From assembly GCF_004376175.1 (NCBI RefSeq), contig NZ_SNUY01000109.1:1-6161 (forward strand): DNA of 6,161 bases, given 5' to 3'. The notes beneath the pieces were generated by a model. That model was not told the DNA's origin. It saw only the letters and a list, made by a program, of their open reading frames with translations, and did no database searches. Position numbers and translations under genes: made by a program. Position 1 is the stretch's first letter. Every line of letters starts with the position of its first letter. This document shows positions 1 to 6,161 of the stretch, piece after piece. This DNA is from Halalkalibacterium halodurans (lineage in GTDB: Bacteria; Bacillota; Bacilli; Bacillales; Bacillaceae_D).

Positions 1-125
1 TATACACTTCGCCCTTGACAGAACCTTCTGAAACTTTTTGTGTAGTCACCAAGGCTGCTTAAGGTCTAATATATTGGCAATTCCAAAGGAAACCCTGCGA
101 GCTTACACAAAATTCTTGACGGTAC
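1..125 (+). mobile_element. Diverged partial copy of the non-coding right end of the IS type seen at 4236-6059; cut by the window edge
   Basis: Collinear conserved blocks against 5931-6059: cttcgcccttga (7-18 vs 5931-5942), ctgaa, ctaata.a.tgg (66-77 vs 6001-6011), gaa(a)cc.tgc.ag.tt (about 90-105 vs 6022-6036). The terminal ttcttgacggtacc (112-125) matches ttttgacactacc (6047-6059). Roughly 60-65% identity by eye, with similar spacing. Confidence 0.45.
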
Positions 126-166
126 CTATTTTTATCTGCTTTTGATAAATTTATAAAAAACCTCAT

Positions 167-646
167 TTACTTATGGTACGGTTCCCCCCTATTAATCCGA
201 AACGCCCGATACACCTGCTCCAACAAGATCAACCGCATGAGCTGATGGGGGAAGGTCATCTTCGAAAAGGAGAGCTTTTCGTCTGCGCGCTTGAGGACGG
301 CGTCGCTGAGGCCGAGGGAGCCGCCGATGACGAAGGCTACCTTGCTCTTTCCATAAGTGGCGAGTCTATCCATAGTATCGGCTAATTCTTCTGAACTTTT
401 CATGCTTCCTTCGATGGCTAGGGCAATCACATAGGTGTCGGGGTGGAGTTTGGCGAGGATGCGCTCGCCTTCTTTTTGTTTGACGTGTTCCATTTCGGTG
501 TCGCTGAGCTGCTCTGGGGCTTTTTCGTCGGGGACTTCGATGAGCTCGGTCTTAGCGTAGGCGCTGAGGCGTTTCGTGTATTCAGCGATTCCTTGCTTTA
601 AGTATTTTTCTTTTAATTTTCCAACTGAAATAATCGAAATATTCAC
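167..646 (-). CDS. rlmH: 23S rRNA (pseudouridine1915-N3)-methyltransferase RlmH (SPOUT family), 159 aa
   Basis: The translation is near-collinear with Bacillus RlmH/YydA ([65 protein letters not shown]). I place the start at GTG 646-644 (sequence VNISII), which is preceded by AAGAGG 9 nt upstream. The track start at 667 adds 7 residues that are probably untranslated. Confidence 0.93.
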
Positions 647-713
647 AGTGTATAACCTCTTTTGCACAGTTTTCCACAGGAGTTATCCACATATCAACAT
701 GTGGATGTGTAAG

Positions 714-872
714 TTATTCAGATATGCTATAAATGGCGTTGTTTTTACAGAAGGCGCATGTTGTGGATAATTGCTCGTCTTCTGTTAATTGATTGATGAT
801 GGGGGCTGTTTCTTTTTCGTCGATGATGATTTCCATTGCGAGTTCTACGTGTTCAAGGCAAGTGTTGTACAT
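714..872 (-). CDS. Small CxxH/CxxC protein (BA_5709-like family), 52 aa
   Basis: The ORF is MYNTCLEHVELAMEIIIDEKETAPIINQLTEDEQLSTTCAFCKNNAIYSISE, with an N-terminal CLEH and a C-terminal CAFC motif. ATG at 872-870 is preceded by AAAGGAGCGGAG. The track start at 896 is probably too far upstream. Confidence 0.65.
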   Translation of the reverse strand: MYNTCLEHVELAMEIIIDEKETAPIINQLTEDEQLSTTCAFCKNNAIYSISE

Positions 873-902
873 GTTTTCTCCGCTCCTTTTCGTCACGTGT
901 TT

Positions 903-936
903 ATTATAGCATACCCTGTTGACGTGCTGTGGATAA
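903..936 (-). promoter_or_regulatory. Candidate sigmaA extended -10 promoter for the CxxH/CxxC gene (possibly also rlmH), with a DnaA box over the -35 position
   Basis: The minus strand reads TGCTATAAT (911-903), a perfect -10 with a TGn extension. There is no good -35 hexamer. The perfect DnaA box at 928-936 overlaps the expected -35 position. Confidence 0.45.
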
Positions 937-1058
937 GTTTGTTTATTTGACTGGATGCTCGTGTTGTGAGGATGTCGTTCTTTTTAACATTTTGGCTGTG
1001 GATTTTTTATACCGTGGTACGTTTGAGGGCAATCCACAATGGATCAAAAAGGAGAGAA

Positions 1059-1506
1059 ATGAAGATTGAACATGTACCAAGCGTTTGCATCGCCTATGTG
1101 CGACAGGTGGGGCCTTATGCTCCTCGTAATCGTCAAACGATGGAAAATATCAAAAGCTGGGCGAGGTGAACCGTCTTCTTGATGATCAAGCGATTATCCT
1201 TGGCACTTCACAAGACCCTCCTGAAACGACTCCCCCTGAAAAATGTCGTATGATGCGTGTATCGTGATTTCAGATGAGCAGCCATTGGATGGTTCGGTTC
1301 GTGAAGGGATGCTATCTGCCGATTTATATGCGGTGTACGAAGTAAAACATACAGCAGAAGCGCTGGAGCAAGCGTGGGGGGACATTTTTTCTGAGCTCCA
1401 AAGCAGTGGGTATGAAATGGATACCAAGCCGCTGTTTGAACGGTATGCTGGCGAGATCGTTTCTAGCGGTGCGTGTGAAATCAGCGTCCCGATTAGAAAA
1501 GCGTAA
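1059..1506 (+). pseudogene. GyrI-like small-molecule-binding domain protein (effector-binding domain type), disrupted by two -1 frameshifts
   Basis: ATG at 1059 follows AAAGGAG. The reading MKIEHVPSVCIAYVRQVGPY...SWAR stops at 1167-1169. It continues in frame -1 as NRLLDDQAIILGTSQDPPETTPPEKCR (from 1172), and again in frame -1 as YDACIVISDEQ...FERYAGE...CEISVPIRKA, ending at 1506. The total of 448 nt is two bases short of a 150-codon frame. Confidence 0.7.
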
Positions 1507-1576
1507 AGCACCCGCTTAAAAACGTAGCAGCTGGACCGGACAGCGAGCAGATGATGAATGATCAACTCTCTCTATT

Positions 1577-1618
1577 AAAAAAACTCCTGCGCCTGAATGA
1601 TCAGACGCGGGAGTTTTT
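1577..1618. terminator. Bidirectional rho-independent terminator between the convergent GyrI-like gene and the sortase operon
   Basis: The 13-bp stem CTCCTGCGCCTGA (1584-1596) pairs with TCAGACGCGGGAG (1601-1613), with one mismatch and one G-U pair, around the loop ATGA. It is flanked by an A7 run (1577-1583) and a T5 run (1614-1618), so each strand has a U-tract. Confidence 0.8.
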
Positions 1619-2243
1619 AGCTGTTTTCGTTTTCACTCTCGTCTTTCTCTTTAATGAGCGTTGCTTCTAAAATGTAACGCTCCGGTGCAGAGCCGATAAA
1701 GTCGAACGGATAGCAGGTTGACACGGTGAGCGTGGCCCGCGGCTTTGGTACGATGACGGTTCGGTCATCCTCGTCCACGATCCGCACCTTGCGCACGCGG
1801 TACGTATGGGTGCCGGTCGCGGTTTCGACGATGAGCAGGTCACCGACGCCGACCTCGCCAAGCTCGCGGAAGACGGTGTCGCGGTGCCCAGATAGCACCG
1901 AATTGTCCTCTTCCCCTGGCAGGACGCTGTTCGCGAAATGGCCCACACCGCGCTCCAGTTCATCCTCATCGGTTCCGTGATAAATCGGAAGGGTGGCTTC
2001 CAGCTTCGGAATGTATAGCTCCCCCATCAAGTCCCCTTTTTCAGGTTTGAGGGGGTACGGTGAATCAACAGGTTCTGTCGGTTCGTCTTCGGCTGGCGGC
2101 ACAGGCTGCGGTTCCTCTTTCGTCATTTGACCCGCCTTGAAGATGGCGTATCCGGTTAAAAACTTGCTGAGGTTCGTCGTGCTGAACCAGATACCAAAAA
2201 TGATCGCAACGACAGCCAGGCCGAGTATCCCTTTTCTCATCAT
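1617..2243 (-). CDS. Class D sortase (YhcS/SrtD-like), 208 aa
   Basis: N-terminal TM anchor (ILGLAVVAIIFGIWF). Sortase catalytic signatures are present: LSGHRD (His), TVSTCYPF (the TLxTC-type Cys motif) and APERYIL (Arg). The start ATG overlaps the stop of the upstream substrate gene. Confidence 0.9.
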   Translation of the reverse strand: MMRKGILGLAVVAIIFGIWFSTTNLSKFLTGYAIFKAGQMTKEEPQPVPPAEDEPTEPVDSPYPLKPEKGDLMGELYIPKLEATLPIYHGTDEDELERGVGHFANSVLPGEEDNSVLSGHRDTVFRELGEVGVGDLLIVETATGTHTYRVRKVRIVDEDDRTVIVPKPRATLTVSTCYPFDFIGSAPERYILEATLIKEKDESENENS

Positions 2244-3217
2244 CCGTTTTGCTTAACGGAGAATCTGCGATAGACGAACACTCCACCTAATGCAAGAAGG
2301 AGTCCATACAATGTGTGCTCTAAGTAGTTAGAGGCCGTCTTTGGCAGCTTCGCCCCTTTGACTGTTTTCGTCACTTCACCGTCTTGCTTTTGCACGGTTT
2401 CATTGACTTTCTTCAAGTCTTTCCCTGTCTCTTGGATTAAATCCCATCCGAAATCTTCGGCGCGAAGAAGGATATCAGCAAGGAACTCTCCCTCAAGATT
2501 GTACAATTCGATTAGTAAGTCATAGCCGTTTGTTGTCGTCATTGATACAAGCTCACGCAAAGAGAGAGCGATTTTCTCGTCGCCTTTCACGAGGTACATT
2601 TTCACGTCAAGCTCAAATAGGTCAAGCATTTCTGAAAAAATGTCGAGAAGCTCCGCAATTTGTCTTTCCGTTAACTCAGACGCTTCGTCAAACTCTTCGA
2701 ATGCCATCAAGCGATCCGATAAGTTAAGGAGACGTGCTTCAAACGCTGGATCTTCATAGTCTAACGTTTTGAAGTGCTCAATGAGACGATCCAACTCCTC
2801 TGGTGTAAGGCCGATCATCTCGAAAAAGTCGGAGTAAAGGTCGTCCCAATCTTCTCCGTTCAGATAGAACCAGATCGCAAAGTCTAAGTCATCGTAAAAC
2901 TTATAATCATCCAGCGTTTCCCCATATTCGGCAAGCAGTTCTTCAAGCTCTGCTCTCGTTAAACCATACTCATCGAGTAGTTCTTGTAAGTTTTCTTCCG
3001 TTAAAACAGGGCCTAAGAAGTCACGAAGCTCGTCCACTGAATCAAAATCAGAAATAACCAATCCCATTTCTTCTAAGTACCATTCAAGCTCTTCCTGTGA
3101 CCACTCAATGTCAGTTAAGTAGTTGTCCAGCTCCGCTTGGTTCACAGCTGCAGACGCCGTGAACGGAGAAGCGAACGCCAATACGAGTGCAAAACATAAG
3201 GCTAATAATTGTCGCAT
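2240..3217 (-). CDS. Processed acidic surface protein with a C-terminal LPKTA sortase sorting signal, 325 aa
   Basis: Signal peptide MRQLLALCFALVLAFASPFTASA/AV. The body is extremely Asp/Glu-rich, with degenerate EEL..YL.EYGLT..EL repeats. The C-terminus has LPKTAS (LPKTA at 2333-2347), then a hydrophobic segment LYGLLLALGGVFVY, then an RR..K tail. I place the start at ATG 3217, which follows GGAGG 8 nt upstream; the track start at 3232 lies inside the SD. Confidence 0.85.
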   Translation of the reverse strand: MRQLLALCFALVLAFASPFTASAAVNQAELDNYLTDIEWSQEELEWYLEEMGLVISDFDSVDELRDFLGPVLTEENLQELLDEYGLTRAELEELLAEYGETLDDYKFYDDLDFAIWFYLNGEDWDDLYSDFFEMIGLTPEELDRLIEHFKTLDYEDPAFEARLLNLSDRLMAFEEFDEASELTERQIAELLDIFSEMLDLFELDVKMYLVKGDEKIALSLRELVSMTTTNGYDLLIELYNLEGEFLADILLRAEDFGWDLIQETGKDLKKVNETVQKQDGEVTKTVKGAKLPKTASNYLEHTLYGLLLALGGVFVYRRFSVKQNG

Positions 3218-3260
3218 TCTAGGTTCCTCCATTATGAAATTTTTTACTTTTAATGAGAAA

Positions 3261-3266
3261 ATTATA
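3261..3266 (-). promoter_or_regulatory. Candidate -10 element for the surface-protein/sortase operon
   Basis: The minus strand reads TATAAT (within AATTATAATT) about 44 nt upstream of ATG 3217. No convincing -35 is present (TATCCA at 17-bp spacing). Confidence 0.3.
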
Positions 3267-3371
3267 ATTCATTCTGACTATTTTGGATAGAGCCTATTTT
3301 TCGGCAAAATTCGCCAAAATTCGAATGGATTGCGACGGCTCTATTGCTAGTTTGGGAGAGGACACACAAGG

Positions 3372-3399
3372 CGACACACAAAGAGCCCTGTTGGGGTCT
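3372..3399 (-). terminator. Weak candidate terminator downstream of the small membrane-protein gene
   Basis: The minus strand reads AGACCCC-AACA-GGGCTCT (7-bp stem, one mismatch), followed by TTTGTGTGT. Confidence 0.3.
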
Positions 3400-3451
3400 A
3401 GCACCACACTAAGGGCAAAGTACTTTGCTCACCTACTAAGGTGACCTTTCA

Positions 3452-3736
3452 CTATTGGCTTTTCTTATACTTAAAGTAATCGTTCATGATGATCATGATT
3501 GGAAAGATTAATACGACCAAACCAATAATGTAGTTGAAATAGCTCATGAAGGCGAAACCTAAGATAACGTTTAGAAACGCTAAGACTAACAATGACCAAA
3601 AAGTGTTTTTCTTTTTTTTGAAGCGATAAACAATAAAGCTGAGTATTAAAGAGACGAGGAAAAGGCTTGAACTAATAGCGATAACCAATATAATCACCTG
3701 AAGGAAGTAATGTTGAGCAACATGGCACTTCACCAA
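3452..3736 (-). CDS. Small hypothetical integral membrane protein (about 3 TM helices, up to 94 aa)
   Basis: There are three long hydrophobic stretches. A KKKKN loop follows the first TM and the C-terminus is basic (KYKKSQ). The gene is AT-rich compared with its neighbours. There is no SD before the TTG/GTG at 3736/3733. An internal TTG at 3688-3686 is preceded by AGGTGA 5 nt upstream, so the true start is uncertain. Confidence 0.5.
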   Translation of the reverse strand: MVKCHVAQHYFLQVIILVIAISSSLFLVSLILSFIVYRFKKKKNTFWSLLVLAFLNVILGFAFMSYFNYIIGLVVLIFPIMIIMNDYFKYKKSQ

Positions 3737-3853
3737 TTTACGTAAATACTAGAGGTCATGTTAAAAAACGAGGAGAACGCCTAGTTAAATAAGAAGGATT
3801 TGATTTTTCAAGGGGTTGCTATTGTACTGTGTTTCTTTTTATACATTTTTGAA

Positions 3854-3879
3854 AGCCCCGTGGACTCTTCTACGGGGCT
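3854..3879 (-). terminator. GC-rich hairpin just after the second small-peptide ORF (probable terminator, poor U-tract)
   Basis: On the minus strand, AGCCCCGT-(10 nt loop)-ACGGGGCT begins 13 nt after the stop at 3893. The stem can extend to 10 bp. It is followed only by TTTC and then an A-run. Confidence 0.5.
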
Positions 3880-3892
3880 TCTGCCTGGTAAA

Positions 3893-4024
3893 TCAGGCTC
3901 CGGTACTCTGTTTCTGCTGGATCGTAAATCCGTCTCCTGAACTGCTGTTTTGACTTAGCTCCTGAGGACTCACAAAGCCAAAGAGTAAACCTGCTGCAAT
4001 GAGTGATAGGAAAACATTCTTCAT
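3893..4024 (-). CDS. Small secreted-type pro-peptide, paralog 2 (43 aa): MKNVFLSLIAAGLLFGFVSPQELSQNSSSGDGFTIQQKQSTGA
   Basis: Hand translation of the minus strand. The SD is AGGAGG (4040-4035), 10 nt before ATG 4024. It has a signal-peptide-like N-terminus and a polar Ser-rich tail, and is about 48% identical to the adjacent ORF. A hairpin follows the stop. It falls below the ORF-track length cutoff. Confidence 0.65.
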   Translation of the reverse strand: MKNVFLSLIAAGLLFGFVSPQELSQNSSSGDGFTIQQKQSTGA

Positions 4025-4077
4025 GTTCTCTCTGCCTCCTCCTGTGCCTTTTTACAGGGGCATTGCACGATATTTTA

Positions 4078-4212
4078 TCAGTTTCCACCTCGATGCAATT
4101 CCTGAGTGGTAAAACCGCTTTCTGATGAACTGCTGTTGATATTGACTTGATCTGGACTTGCAAAGCCGAACACAAAGCCTGCTACAATCAACGTTAAAAT
4201 TGTCTTTTTCAT
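4078..4212 (-). CDS. Small secreted-type pro-peptide, paralog 1 (44 aa): MKKTILTLIVAGFVFGFASPDQVNINSSSSESGFTTQELHRGGN
   Basis: Hand translation of the minus strand. The SD is AGGAGG (4228-4223), 10 nt before ATG 4212. The 22 nt upstream of the ATG match those of paralog 2 at 19/22 positions. It has the same architecture, with shared FGF(A/V)SP and NSSS..GFT.Q blocks. Confidence 0.65.
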   Translation of the reverse strand: MKKTILTLIVAGFVFGFASPDQVNINSSSSESGFTTQELHRGGN

Positions 4213-4227
4213 ACTCTCTCTGCCTCC

Positions 4228-4235
4228 TCTTGTGT
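4228..4235. repeat. Left copy of the 8-bp target-site duplication TCTTGTGT
   Basis: The identical octamer occurs at 6060-6067, immediately outside the opposite IS end. The preceding cc is also shared, so the duplication could be read as up to 10 bp. Confidence 0.7.
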
Positions 4236-4252
4236 CGTATTGTCAAAACTTT
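4236..4252 (+). repeat. IS left terminal inverted repeat (IRL) CGTATTGTCAAAACTTT
   Basis: Matches the reverse complement of 6043-6059 (GGTAGTGTCAAAAGTTC) at 13/17 positions. The core is TGTCAAAA. Confidence 0.7.
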
Positions 4253-4305
4253 ATATAAAAATAGGCTATTAAATCCTATGTTAGAGGGCTTTATAAGCAA
4301 AAAAA

Positions 4306-4333
4306 TTGCCACTCCCTGATTTCTGTAGATAAT
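4306..4333 (+). promoter_or_regulatory. Candidate transposase promoter
   Basis: TTGCCA (4306-4311), a 16-nt spacer, then GATAAT (4328-4333). Downstream are AAAGGA (4361-4366) and the TTG start at 4376. Confidence 0.4.
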
Positions 4334-4375
4334 TGAGGTTACCATACACCCAATTCCAGAAAAGGACGTGACAAT

Positions 4376-5827
4376 TTGTACCCTCAAATTCTAACCTATT
4401 TATTAACTTTTATAGACTATCAAGAACAAATTATTCGAACTGTGCTTACTCTTTTGATTGGACAAAGCATGTTCGATAAACCAAAAGAAGCTCCTGTTAA
4501 TCAGCCTTATCGAAAGCTTCTAATTGATGATTTACCTATCCTTGATAAGGTAGAAAAGCTCGCTTATCAGCTTTTATTAACGGAATACCTTCAATCAAAA
4601 GGAAAACCGTTAAAACCAGTACGCCGTCGAGCCAATTCTACGCCCGTACCTTCTGCATTGTGTTGTCCTAAGTGTGGTGCCCCTTCTGCGTATTTGTACG
4701 CAAATAACGGAGGAAAAGGACAATATCAATGTAAGGTGTGTGCGTGTGTTTTCAATAAAAATAGTCGTTATCAGAAAGAGGCCATTCTTAAGTGTCCTCA
4801 CTGCCTTAAACCGCTTGAAAAAATTAAAGAACGAAAAGATTTTCACGTGTTTAAGTGCAAAAATGATATGTGTACCTATTATCAAAAAAACTTGAGCGCC
4901 ATGACCAAAAAAGAGAAAAAACAATTTAAAGAAGATCCACAATCGCTGAAAGTACGCTACATTTACCGGAAGTTCCACATCGACTATCAACCGTTATCAA
5001 AACAATCACCAAAACAGCCAAAAGTCGATTTATCAAGATTGTATGTTTCCCCACATACGCTTGGTCTCATCTTGACGTATCATGTCAATTACGGATTATC
5101 GGCCCGTAACCCGGCCGCGATCAGGAAGGATATTCACGGCGTGTCTGTCTCCCATCAAAGTATCCTAAACTACGAAAACAGCGTCGCATTATGGCTCAAG
5201 CCTTATATCGACTACTTTCCGTATGAGCTCTCGGATCAATTTTGTGGGGATGAAACGTACATCCGTGTCAATGGTCGTTGGCATTATCTGTTTTTATTTT
5301 TTGATGCGGTAAAGAAAGTCATTCTTTCGTATCCTGTATCACCAAATCGAGATACCGCAACAGCGATACGAGCGATTGATGAAGTATTAGTGAAGCTGAA
5401 AGAGATTCCAGAAAATCTACAGTTGGTTGTAGATGGTAATCCAATCTATTTGTTAGCACAGCATTTCTTCGCAGAGAATCAAATATCGTTTGACGTCAAA
5501 CAGGTCATCGGGCTAACAAATGAAGACGATGTCTCTAGAGAGTATCGACCTCTCAAGCAAATCATTGAACGACTAAATCGCACGTTTAAAGGGAATTATC
5601 GTTCGACGCACGGCTTTGGTTCTGAACAGGGATCTGTTTCTTTTGTGACATTGTTTGTGGCTTACTTTAACTTCTTACGTCCACATTCTTCACTCGAAGG
5701 GAAAGTGCCAGTAACAATTCCAGAATTAGAAAAGCTACCAACCATGCCCGCGAGATGGACAACCCTTATTGGATTAGCTCAAGACTGGATTCAACACCAA
5801 CAGTCAGCCGAACTTTTGGTTAGCTGA
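4376..5827 (+). CDS. DDE transposase, IS6/IS240-type catalytic core with an N-terminal double zinc-ribbon extension, 483 aa
   Basis: The core contains GDETYIRVNGRWHYLF (D292), LVVDGNP (D353) and QIIERLNRTFK (E398, K405). The spacing is D-61-D-45-E with K at E+7. The N-terminus contains CCPKC..x18..CKVCAC and CPHC..x17..CKNDMC. The start could be TTG 4376 (preceded by AAAGGA) or ATG 4469. Confidence 0.9.
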   Translation: MYPQILTYLLTFIDYQEQIIRTVLTLLIGQSMFDKPKEAPVNQPYRKLLIDDLPILDKVEKLAYQLLLTEYLQSKGKPLKPVRRRANSTPVPSALCCPKCGAPSAYLYANNGGKGQYQCKVCACVFNKNSRYQKEAILKCPHCLKPLEKIKERKDFHVFKCKNDMCTYYQKNLSAMTKKEKKQFKEDPQSLKVRYIYRKFHIDYQPLSKQSPKQPKVDLSRLYVSPHTLGLILTYHVNYGLSARNPAAIRKDIHGVSVSHQSILNYENSVALWLKPYIDYFPYELSDQFCGDETYIRVNGRWHYLFLFFDAVKKVILSYPVSPNRDTATAIRAIDEVLVKLKEIPENLQLVVDGNPIYLLAQHFFAENQISFDVKQVIGLTNEDDVSREYRPLKQIIERLNRTFKGNYRSTHGFGSEQGSVSFVTLFVAYFNFLRPHSSLEGKVPVTIPELEKLPTMPARWTTLIGLAQDWIQHQQSAELLVS

Positions 5828-5837
5828 GCCCTATTCA

Positions 5838-5987
5838 GCTATCGGCGAAGCGAACTCTTGACAATCCGAACTTGCCAATGGTTTAAAATGGAAAAAGTCA
5901 AGGGTTATTTGGCATGCCTACTTTTGTTCCCTTCGCCCTTGATTGACCTCTGAATAAACCATTGGCGTGTTTGTCAAGAGCGATAGC
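5838..5987. other. Nested inverted-repeat / long-hairpin region in the IS 3' non-coding segment (candidate structured RNA or transposase-binding array)
   Basis: Perfect pairings: 5838-5844/5981-5987 (7 bp), 5855-5864/5971-5980 (10 bp) and 5874-5885/5955-5966 (12 bp). A fourth pairing, 5896-5904/5936-5944, is 9 bp including one G-U. The apical palindrome GGCATGCC is at 5911-5918. Confidence 0.6.
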
Positions 5988-6042
5988 GCGGCCTTTCCAC
6001 CTAATAAATGGTAGGTAGTATGAACCGTGCTAGTTTTTCATA

Positions 6043-6059
6043 GAACTTTTGACACTACC
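6043..6059 (+). repeat. IS right terminal inverted repeat (IRR) GAACTTTTGACACTACC
   Basis: Inverted match to IRL (13/17). It contains a perfect TTGACA at 6049-6054. Confidence 0.7.
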
Positions 6060-6067
6060 TCTTGTGT
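6060..6067. repeat. Right copy of the 8-bp target-site duplication TCTTGTGT; also the spacer between two IS copies
   Basis: Identical to 4228-4235. It lies between the IRR of copy 1 (ends 6059) and the IRL of copy 2 (starts 6068). Confidence 0.7.
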
Positions 6068-6161
6068 CGTATTGTCAAAACTTTATATAAAAATAGGTTA
6101 TTAAATCCTATGTTAGAGGGCTTTATAAGCAAAAAAATTGCCACCCCCTGATTTCTGTAGA
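6068..6161 (+). mobile_element. Left end of a second, directly oriented IS copy (partial; runs off the window)
   Basis: 6060-6161 matches 4228-4329 at 100/102 positions with no indels, at an offset of 1832 bp (IS length plus 8). The mismatches are at 4266/6098 and 4313/6145. Confidence 0.8.

Follow-up and report, generated by a model that had tools for sequence, protein, structure and literature searches.

What is encoded by two short, back-to-back open reading frames (ORFs) on the minus strand of a 6,161-nt stretch of Halalkalibacterium halodurans DNA (assembly GCF_004376175.1, contig NZ_SNUY01000109.1, positions 1 to 6,161; hereafter the window), and, if they are pheromone precursors, where is their receptor? 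Rap-Phr cassettes are textbook RRNPP systems, and the evidence discussed below makes it very probable that both ORFs are phr genes, paralogous and in tandem, which belong to a chromosomal H. halodurans Rap-Phr quorum-sensing cassette. The first and second ORF are referred to as pep1 and pep2, respectively, and labels of the L001-L035 type designate loci of relatives.

The preliminary description of the window had reported two tandem minus-strand ORFs of 43-44 aa, each with an AGGAGG Shine-Dalgarno sequence 10 nt before its ATG, with nearly identical leaders, about 48% peptide identity and a GC-rich hairpin after the second stop codon. These features were recovered exactly with respect to coordinates and translations (Table 1): the leaders (~25 nt) are near-identical, 21/43 residues of the peptides coincide (49%, BLASTP E=1e-12), and the Shine-Dalgarno sequence is kept in every phr copy of all strains compared. 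The hairpin was also evidenced by folding, a 66-nt stretch showing a dG of -26.8 kcal/mol (z = -5.7, with 0/200 shuffles equally stable), and it is present after the last phr copy in strain C-125 and in L001, L007 and L010. It has no clean U-tract and was not called by a consensus terminator scan; it is likely a transcription terminator, non-canonical for its U-tract. By inspection, the N-termini consist of MKK or MKN followed by 15-17 hydrophobic residues and SP(D/Q). In the pep1 ortholog of C-125 (L005 9813-9947) a Cys replaces Phe17 (FGCASP), giving an L-x-G-C-like string near the leader end which is loosely lipobox-like; this change is found neither in the window nor in other strains.

A profile search with both peptides matched solely Halalkalibacterium (Bacillus) halodurans proteins. 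The term "unannotated" that had been applied to these ORFs does not hold, since strain C-125 has pep2 as BH4012 and other strains have deposited records of pep1, both under the label "hypothetical protein"; they are unnamed, merely not called Phr. The exact pep1 protein is present in 14 H. halodurans contigs, and at the nucleotide level pep1 does not differ from copy 3 in the four-gene arrays L010-L012; C-125 and other strains share pep2 unchanged.

The peptide frames are under purifying selection. All 18 of the 18 distinct nucleotide alleles keep an ORF of 42-46 codons, and all indels are multiples of three. The ratio of non-synonymous to synonymous substitution (dN/dS), calculated with the Jukes-Cantor (JC) correction for the annotated frame and for the two shifted frames, was 0.25 for all alleles and 0.18 for both the pep1 and the pep2 lineage, as opposed to 1.1-1.9, with hundreds of stop-codon cells, in the shifted frames. 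The downstream-only copies gave 0.21, and their 11 alleles are free of stops and frameshifts, meaning that phr copies that do not adjoin rap are equally constrained. The frame conservation and purifying selection for which the preliminary description had proposed to look are thus both evident. The least constrained part is formed by the eight C-terminal codons (uncorrected ratio pN/pS of 0.58 vs ~0.4 elsewhere), as expected for a specificity-determining pheromone. Concerning the possibility of a longer gene in another frame, an overlapping ORF of 101 aa (3870-4175) was rejected as a real gene, as it is not conserved and is broken in L001; another of 111 aa (4052-4387) was rejected because it extends into the IS element described below.

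The receptor was found in strains that lack this insertion. At the same chromosomal locus, with an identical sortase/rlmH side, IS-free strains carry a 371-aa rap gene directly upstream of the peptide genes and on the same strand, and the rap stop codon shares nucleotides with the start codon of the first peptide gene (ATGA). Strain C-125 carries, in this order, rap (8701-9816), the pep1 ortholog (9813-9947), pep2 (10001-10132), a membrane ORF, a surface protein, a sortase and rlmH. A short co-oriented ORF overlapping the rap stop was detected at 12 rap loci of the clade. Based on sequence comparison, the 371-aa protein is a bona fide Rap: it contains the Pfam RapH_N and TPR domains (an N-terminal helix bundle followed by TPR) and aligns over its full length with Rap proteins of known structure in the PDB, with Rap3T as the best match (2e-46), followed by RapI, RapJ, RapF and RapH (2.5e-39). 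Among the residues that anchor the peptide in RapF (PMC3601957), Tyr152, Asn227, Tyr300 and Asp338 are kept in nearly all Raps of the clade; only the Tyr152 equivalent is replaced (by Gln) in the Rap of L032/L033, and the RNPP-invariant Asn (Asn218, corresponding to RapF Asn227) is invariant in the Raps compared. The genes around the locus are chromosomal (walK-region genes, an LXG toxin, sortase, rlmH). The likeness to Phr signalling pro-peptides that had been suggested for both ORFs is therefore supported by this adjoining rap gene and its full-length homology to Rap structures. As for the apparent lack of a receptor, it holds for the window and not for the locus, as the Rap gene adjoins the same genes in IS-free strains. 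When genome contigs were searched with a profile of the Rap alignment, the matches were Bacillus caseinilyticus (L013) and distant B. subtilis-group Raps, H. halodurans not being among them; a metagenome scan with the same alignment gave no match.

Following the established Rap-Phr pathway, the pre-pro-peptides would be exported by Sec by means of MKK and the hydrophobic leader of 15-17 residues, after which extracellular processing would leave a C-terminal oligopeptide for uptake by Opp. This product would then bind the concave TPR face of Rap, and the bound Rap would stop acting on its response-regulator target, e.g. Spo0F~P or a ComA-like regulator.

The identity of the receptor also bears on the possibility that pep1 and pep2 are arbitrium-type (AimP-like) pheromones of a prophage remnant. 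Both peptides produced weak matches to the NCBIfam model AimP_fam (E 2.5e-4 and 1.4e-3) and belong to the same length class (43 aa); AimP ends in ...RGA, to which the ...TGA of pep2 is superficially similar. However, at 21.2 and 18.8 bits the matches lie far below the cut-off of 35 bits, and they are limited to the signal-peptide half (residues 1-32), so that AimP_fam was rejected as an identity and attributed to sub-threshold signal-peptide similarity. In addition, the receptor encoded in relatives is a Rap, with RapH_N and TPR domains and best PDB matches that are all Rap, and not an AimR bearing a helix-turn-helix, and the neighbours are chromosomal with no phage context. An arbitrium system at this locus is therefore hardly credible.

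Further support for a Rap-Phr pair came from twelve Rap/first-phr pairs onto which the residues of RapF were mapped. The peptides share a conserved pro-region motif, SSS..GFT[IT]Q, which is followed by a hypervariable C-terminal tail. In RapF, Asp194 forms a salt bridge with the conserved Arg2 of Phr peptides (PMC3601957). The equivalent position, which is Ser185 in the C-125-type Rap and Glu185 in the L007 and L035 types, varies in the clade and tracks the second residue after GFT[IT]Q in 12/12 pairs: Raps with Ser or Ala go with tails of the form E-L-... (ELHRGGN, ELGRSGN), and those with Asp or Glu with tails of the form x-K/R-... (ERHRNGN, QKQSTGA, QKQNTGA, QKQRTGN, QKHNTGG, ERNNTGN, EKPRIGGF and EKQRTGA). 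This covariation rests on only about 3-4 independent clades and is thus suggestive, not proof. At the position of RapF Glu303 every Rap has Lys, and position 1 of the tail is always E or Q; in B. subtilis Raps a Lys at this position pairs with an acidic first peptide residue (PMC3601957). Taken together with the replacement of Tyr66, Gln183 and Arg223, the residues that clamp the peptide C-terminus in RapF and are not conserved in the Raps of the clade, this covariation suggests a pheromone of 6-7 residues that includes the sixth residue counted back from the C-terminus and whose start probably follows GFT[IT]Q directly, giving a 7-mer. The pheromone of pep1 is predicted within the 5-7 C-terminal residues (E)LHRGGN, and that of pep2 within (Q)KQSTGA. 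The active peptide is probably longer than HRGGN read as an xRxxx pentapeptide, and its predicted frame and length are non-canonical: in the pentapeptide frame Arg would occupy position 2, whereas the Asp194 equivalent of the local Rap is Ser. The pairing of Ser with Leu suggests that pep1 is cognate to the local, Ser-type Rap.

These data are also relevant to the proposal that the two ORFs encode membrane-anchored micro-proteins or type I toxins and not secreted signals. One hydrophobic segment of 15-17 residues after a basic N-terminus, with no obvious AXA site, would be compatible with such proteins. Conversely, the obligatory linkage to rap, with translational overlap at 12 loci, the conserved pro-region and a tail that covaries with a Rap pocket residue would not be expected of them; moreover, no antitoxin, sRNA or other Rfam family was found in the window, and the ORFs on the strand opposite to pep1 and pep2 are not conserved. 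This alternative, which the preliminary description had left standing, found no support and is very improbable.

The number of phr genes that follow rap differs between strains. There are two copies in C-125-type strains and in the window, three in L001, four in L010-L012 and five in L003, a metagenome contig whose Rap is 74% identical and which probably represents a different rap locus; a single copy follows rap at the paralogous locus L007/L008 and in the sister species B. caseinilyticus (L013), in which the sole phr of its Rap ends in ...QKQNTGA. Other rap loci of the species are also multi-copy (three in L029, two in L032/L033). The unit measures ~185-195 bp in most arrays, each additional unit keeps the rap 3'-end leader and the Shine-Dalgarno sequence, and a single hairpin ends the array; in L032 the duplicated segment begins ~98 nt inside rap. 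The five-copy array (L003 8582-9739) contains a duplicated two-unit block, copy 1 resembling copy 3 (91%) and copy 2 resembling copy 4 (88%). Three of its tails (QKHNTGG, EKHRNGGN and EKGRTGN) recur in the same order in L029 (3113-3799) behind a different, 74%-identical Rap, evidencing that whole sub-arrays move between rap loci. Likewise, pep2 with its hairpin differs by few nucleotides over ~200 nt (one in the coding sequence) from the single rap-overlapping phr of L007/L008, at another locus where the Rap is only 72% identical to the local one, which implies exchange between loci.

On account of this near-identity and of the Lys in its tail, which does not match the Ser pocket of the local Rap, it is suggested that pep2 is the signal of a Glu/Asp-type Rap paralog. 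C-125-like strains encode a Glu-type Rap elsewhere in the genome, with the tail EKQRTGA. Thus, besides a self signal, the array probably carries a second one that was taken over from another Rap or is shared with it. A broader and more tentative hypothesis, which we consider possible though not the likelier outcome, is that tandem phr arrays act as multi-signal batteries and are not simply remnants of duplication; one rap operon would broadcast its own pheromone together with exact copies of those of other Rap paralogs or alleles, as heptapeptides in which a Leu-to-Ser/Ala anchor would replace the Arg-Asp salt bridge. If this were the case, the Rap paralogs would be wired into a cross-regulated network, or strains would interfere with each other's pherotypes, and the window strain would represent a natural signal-uncoupled variant, with its Rap nearly intact and both signals detached.

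The uncoupling refers to the upstream side of pep1. An IS had been noted there; it was found as a direct tandem pair, given that 4226-4329 repeats at 6058-6161 with 98% identity and a period of 1832. Alignment with the IS-free C-125 places the boundary between IS and flank between 4233 and 4234, and the layout of the window is flank, CCTCTTGT, IS, CCTCTTGT, IS, with only 8 bp between the copies (T-IS-T-IS). The terminal inverted repeats are imperfect (TATTGTCAAAAC and TAGTGTCAAAAG). In the transposase (452-483 aa), an IS240/IS6-like DDE core is preceded by a long N-terminal extension that is rich in Cys and contains several CxxC motifs; the protein matches Pfam DDE_Tnp_IS240 (E=1.8e-10) and the NCBIfam IS6 model at 68.5 bits, under the cut-off of 125 bits. 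A literature search for the element gave no name, and exact-sequence look-ups of the transposase with two start choices gave no match; a look-up of the surface protein yielded only short contigs that stop short of the phr genes. The insertion site, at ACAAGAGG, lies 5 nt upstream of the pep1 Shine-Dalgarno sequence, and the tandem IS pair would have separated both phr genes from rap and from any upstream promoter. What remains between IS and pep1 is a leader that agrees with the rap 3' end in 20/20 positions in L003 and with 2 mismatches in C-125. It may be either the true rap 3' end cut by the IS or the leader copy of a downstream phr unit, as all downstream phr copies retain the leader ACA[AG]GAGGAGGC[AT]GAGA..ATG. 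If the IS entered rap, the junction predicts a Rap that would lack only its last five residues, with ...LQEVVSKVL* as its predicted C-terminus.

Several observations weigh against the assignment of pep1 and pep2 to a Rap-Phr cassette, or against its operation in the window strain. There is no rap within the window, where it is probably out of view because of the insertion sequences that landed just upstream of pep1. Since every downstream phr unit carries a rap-like leader, an insertion in the rap 3' end and one in an inter-phr spacer fit equally. A consensus promoter scan of the minus strand from the IS end to pep1 detected no sigma-70-like promoter. When five members of the pep1/pep2 family were compared with Pfam (E<=10), no family was matched except for a chance PsbI match, so no curated Phr model supports the assignment. 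Phr precursors are, in general, too short and divergent for a match to a curated model to be a strict requirement. The c-region, FGFASP or FGFVSP by inspection, has no AXA site and has Pro after Ser. To these points must be added the replaced clamp residues of Rap and the small number of clades behind the covariation. A sigma-H-like promoter read by eye in the 3' end of pep1 (AGGAATT ... GGAAAC) was dropped, being unconvincing and located within constrained coding sequence.

The state of the window strain opens the alternative that pep1 and pep2 derive from phr genes and are non-functional there, having been orphaned or silenced by the IS, and/or that downstream copies are leftovers of unequal crossing-over heading for loss, like the transient duplicates in the model of Even-Tov et al. 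(2016). The IS pair between the phr genes and rap, with no promoter predicted in the interval, makes expression in the window strain uncertain, and pep1 and pep2 may be silent in it. The variation from 1 to 5 copies between strains points to frequent gain and loss, and the C-125 array looks as if it had arisen from the three copies of L001 by deletion, though the two Raps are 96% identical. On the other hand, both ORFs, their Shine-Dalgarno sequences and the hairpin are intact in the window, the low dN/dS of the downstream-only copies is not that of dead duplicates, and pep1 and pep2 are nucleotide-identical to alleles of IS-free strains, indicating that any silencing is recent. Loss of function as the explanation of these genes is accordingly regarded as unlikely, and the assignment to a Rap-Phr cassette is retained.

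Table 1. Location of the features of the phr array, the insertion sequences and the adjacent genes in the 6,161-nt window
Feature	Position	Strand	Remarks
RlmH	167-667		Window rlmH region fits H. halodurans
GyrI-like/Cass2 gene, degraded	966-1506	+	Split by single-nucleotide indels vs C-125 into 67-aa and 87-aa pieces
Class D sortase	1617-2243	-	LPxTATN-specific model, 208 bits
Processed acidic surface protein	2240-3232	-	TIGR04383; LPXTA type, LPKTAS sorting signal; sortase substrate
Membrane ORF with two transmembrane (TM) segments, 94 aa (81 aa from GTG start in C-125)	3452-3736	-	Between phr array and surface-protein gene; no family
GC-rich hairpin closing the array, 3' of pep2	3852-3881	-	Fold computed; conserved in relatives
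pep2 (phr paralog 2, = BH4012)	3893-4024	-	43-aa pro-peptide MKNVFLSLIAAGLLFGFVSPQELSQNSSSGDGFTIQQKQSTGA; translation read from sequence
Shine-Dalgarno AGGAGG of pep2	4035-4040	-	10 nt 5' of ATG; sequence read
pep1 (phr paralog 1)	4078-4212	-	44-aa pro-peptide MKKTILTLIVAGFVFGFASPDQVNINSSSSESGFTTQELHRGGN; translation read from sequence
rap-3'-end-like leader	4209-4233	-	CAA GAG GAG GCA GAG AGA GTA TGA = QEEAERV*; TGA overlaps pep1 ATG; last 7 rap codons + stop
Shine-Dalgarno AGGAGG of pep1	4223-4228	-	10 nt 5' of ATG; sequence read
8-bp target-site duplication, copy 1	4226-4233	.	CCTCTTGT (ACAAGAGG on minus strand); flanks IS copy 1; repeat starts 4226 = 6058
IS copy 1	4234-6057	+	1824 bp; DDE transposase ORF 4376/4469-5827; divergent from phr genes
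8-bp target-site duplication, copy 2	6058-6065	.	Between the two IS copies; repeat comparison
IS copy 2, start	6066-6161	+	Direct tandem repeat, 98% identical to 4234-4329; runs off window

In the remainder of the window, the rlmH region also encodes a YyzF-like CxxH/CxxC protein. The GyrI-like/Cass2 gene is called at 73, 95, 113 and 117 aa in other strains and looks like a decaying gene or one that is variable in homopolymer length. The genes of the sortase and the acidic surface protein are translationally coupled and, in every strain, follow directly on the phr array. The two-TM membrane ORF is intact in C-125 and split in L001 (36 aa and 46 aa), and its status as a gene is doubtful. Past rlmH there is a strain-variable island of defence-type genes, of which the window covers the edge only (1-166). 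In L001 (14462-20135) this island includes SLATT with a reverse transcriptase, TIR, SIR2/STALD and ThsB-TIR; in L004 (14057-20132) an N6_N4 methylase with MTaX1, a helicase and an SMC-like protein; and in C-125 (L005 14104-20132) D12 methylases and an AlwI-type restriction enzyme. In all strains, the region upstream of rap (~3300-8400 in L001, L004, L005 and L010) contains, head-to-head with rap, genes for an LXG-domain toxin and DUF5344/YwqH-like partners and a variable series of small putative immunity genes. Elsewhere in the species, rap-phr loci (L032, L029) adjoin LXG toxins, IS21 elements or phage-like genes.

With the assignment proposed here, two "hypothetical proteins" (BH4012 and its neighbour) become named parts of a quorum-sensing cassette and the missing receptor is explained. 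The locus also provides a compact natural series, in which near-identical Raps are followed by 1-5 phr copies, cassettes have been exchanged between paralogous loci and one variant is split by an IS. Such a series would lend itself to testing the model in which shifts of pheromone/receptor specificity depend on duplication, and also whether a Ser/Ala-Leu pair can replace the Asp-Arg anchor of Rap-Phr recognition.

In the literature on H. halodurans Phr/RRNPP, including the text and supplements of PMC5199041, no mention of these peptides was found. Rap-Phr with duplicated phr genes is already known as a type of system and the genes described here are a further case of it; what may be new is that arrays reach five copies, that copy number is polymorphic, that loci exchange copies and that Ser/Ala would pair with Leu. 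The closest counterparts are the Rap-Phr pairs of the B. subtilis group (RapF-PhrF, RapC-PhrC, RapH-PhrH), with which the locus shares the arrangement of a rap gene and a co-oriented phr behind it, with start and stop codon overlapping, a precursor of 42-46 aa with a basic N-terminus, a hydrophobic leader and a variable C-terminus containing the predicted pheromone, and a receptor that is homologous over its full length to the crystallised Raps, with the equivalents of Asn227, Tyr152, Tyr300 and Asp338 nearly always kept. Unlike these pairs, the H. halodurans precursor family has no Pfam match, the near-universal Asp194 is represented in the local Rap by Ser/Ala, which would pair with a peptide Leu and not with Arg/Lys, and Tyr66, Gln183 and Arg223 are replaced, the predicted pheromone having 6-7 residues instead of 5-6. 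The 43-aa length of a presumably secreted precursor for an RRNPP-type receptor and the weak profile match to the signal-peptide half are also reminiscent of AimP, from which the peptides differ in falling below the family cut-off, in having Rap and not AimR as receptor and in the lack of a phage context.

Even-Tov et al. (2016, PLoS Biol, PMC5199041) counted six Rap homologs in B. halodurans. They also described whole-gene phr duplications with diverged autoinducers, both for subclusters of B. subtilis and for other Bacilli (S10C, D and S11 figures), and proposed that these are transient steps in a shift of specificity. The H. halodurans arrays resemble these duplications in having more than one phr after one rap and in the divergence of the putative autoinducers (pep1 ELHRGGN, pep2 QKQSTGA). 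They differ from them in that the text of that study refers to two phr per rap, whereas H. halodurans strains vary from 1 to 5 copies and have multi-copy arrays at further rap loci, and in that one copy matches, almost nucleotide for nucleotide, the phr that is cognate to a paralogous rap. Intragenic duplications of the pheromone within Phr pro-peptides were reported for Rap3T-Phr3T and Rap105-Phr105 (Felipe-Ruiz et al., 2024, PMC11343458). As in those systems, several related candidate pheromones come from the locus of a single Rap, the top PDB match of the H. halodurans Rap being Rap3T; however, the repeats of Phr3T and Phr105 reside in one pro-peptide and are freed by proteolysis, whereas in H. 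halodurans each candidate pheromone has its own gene, Shine-Dalgarno sequence and putative signal peptide.

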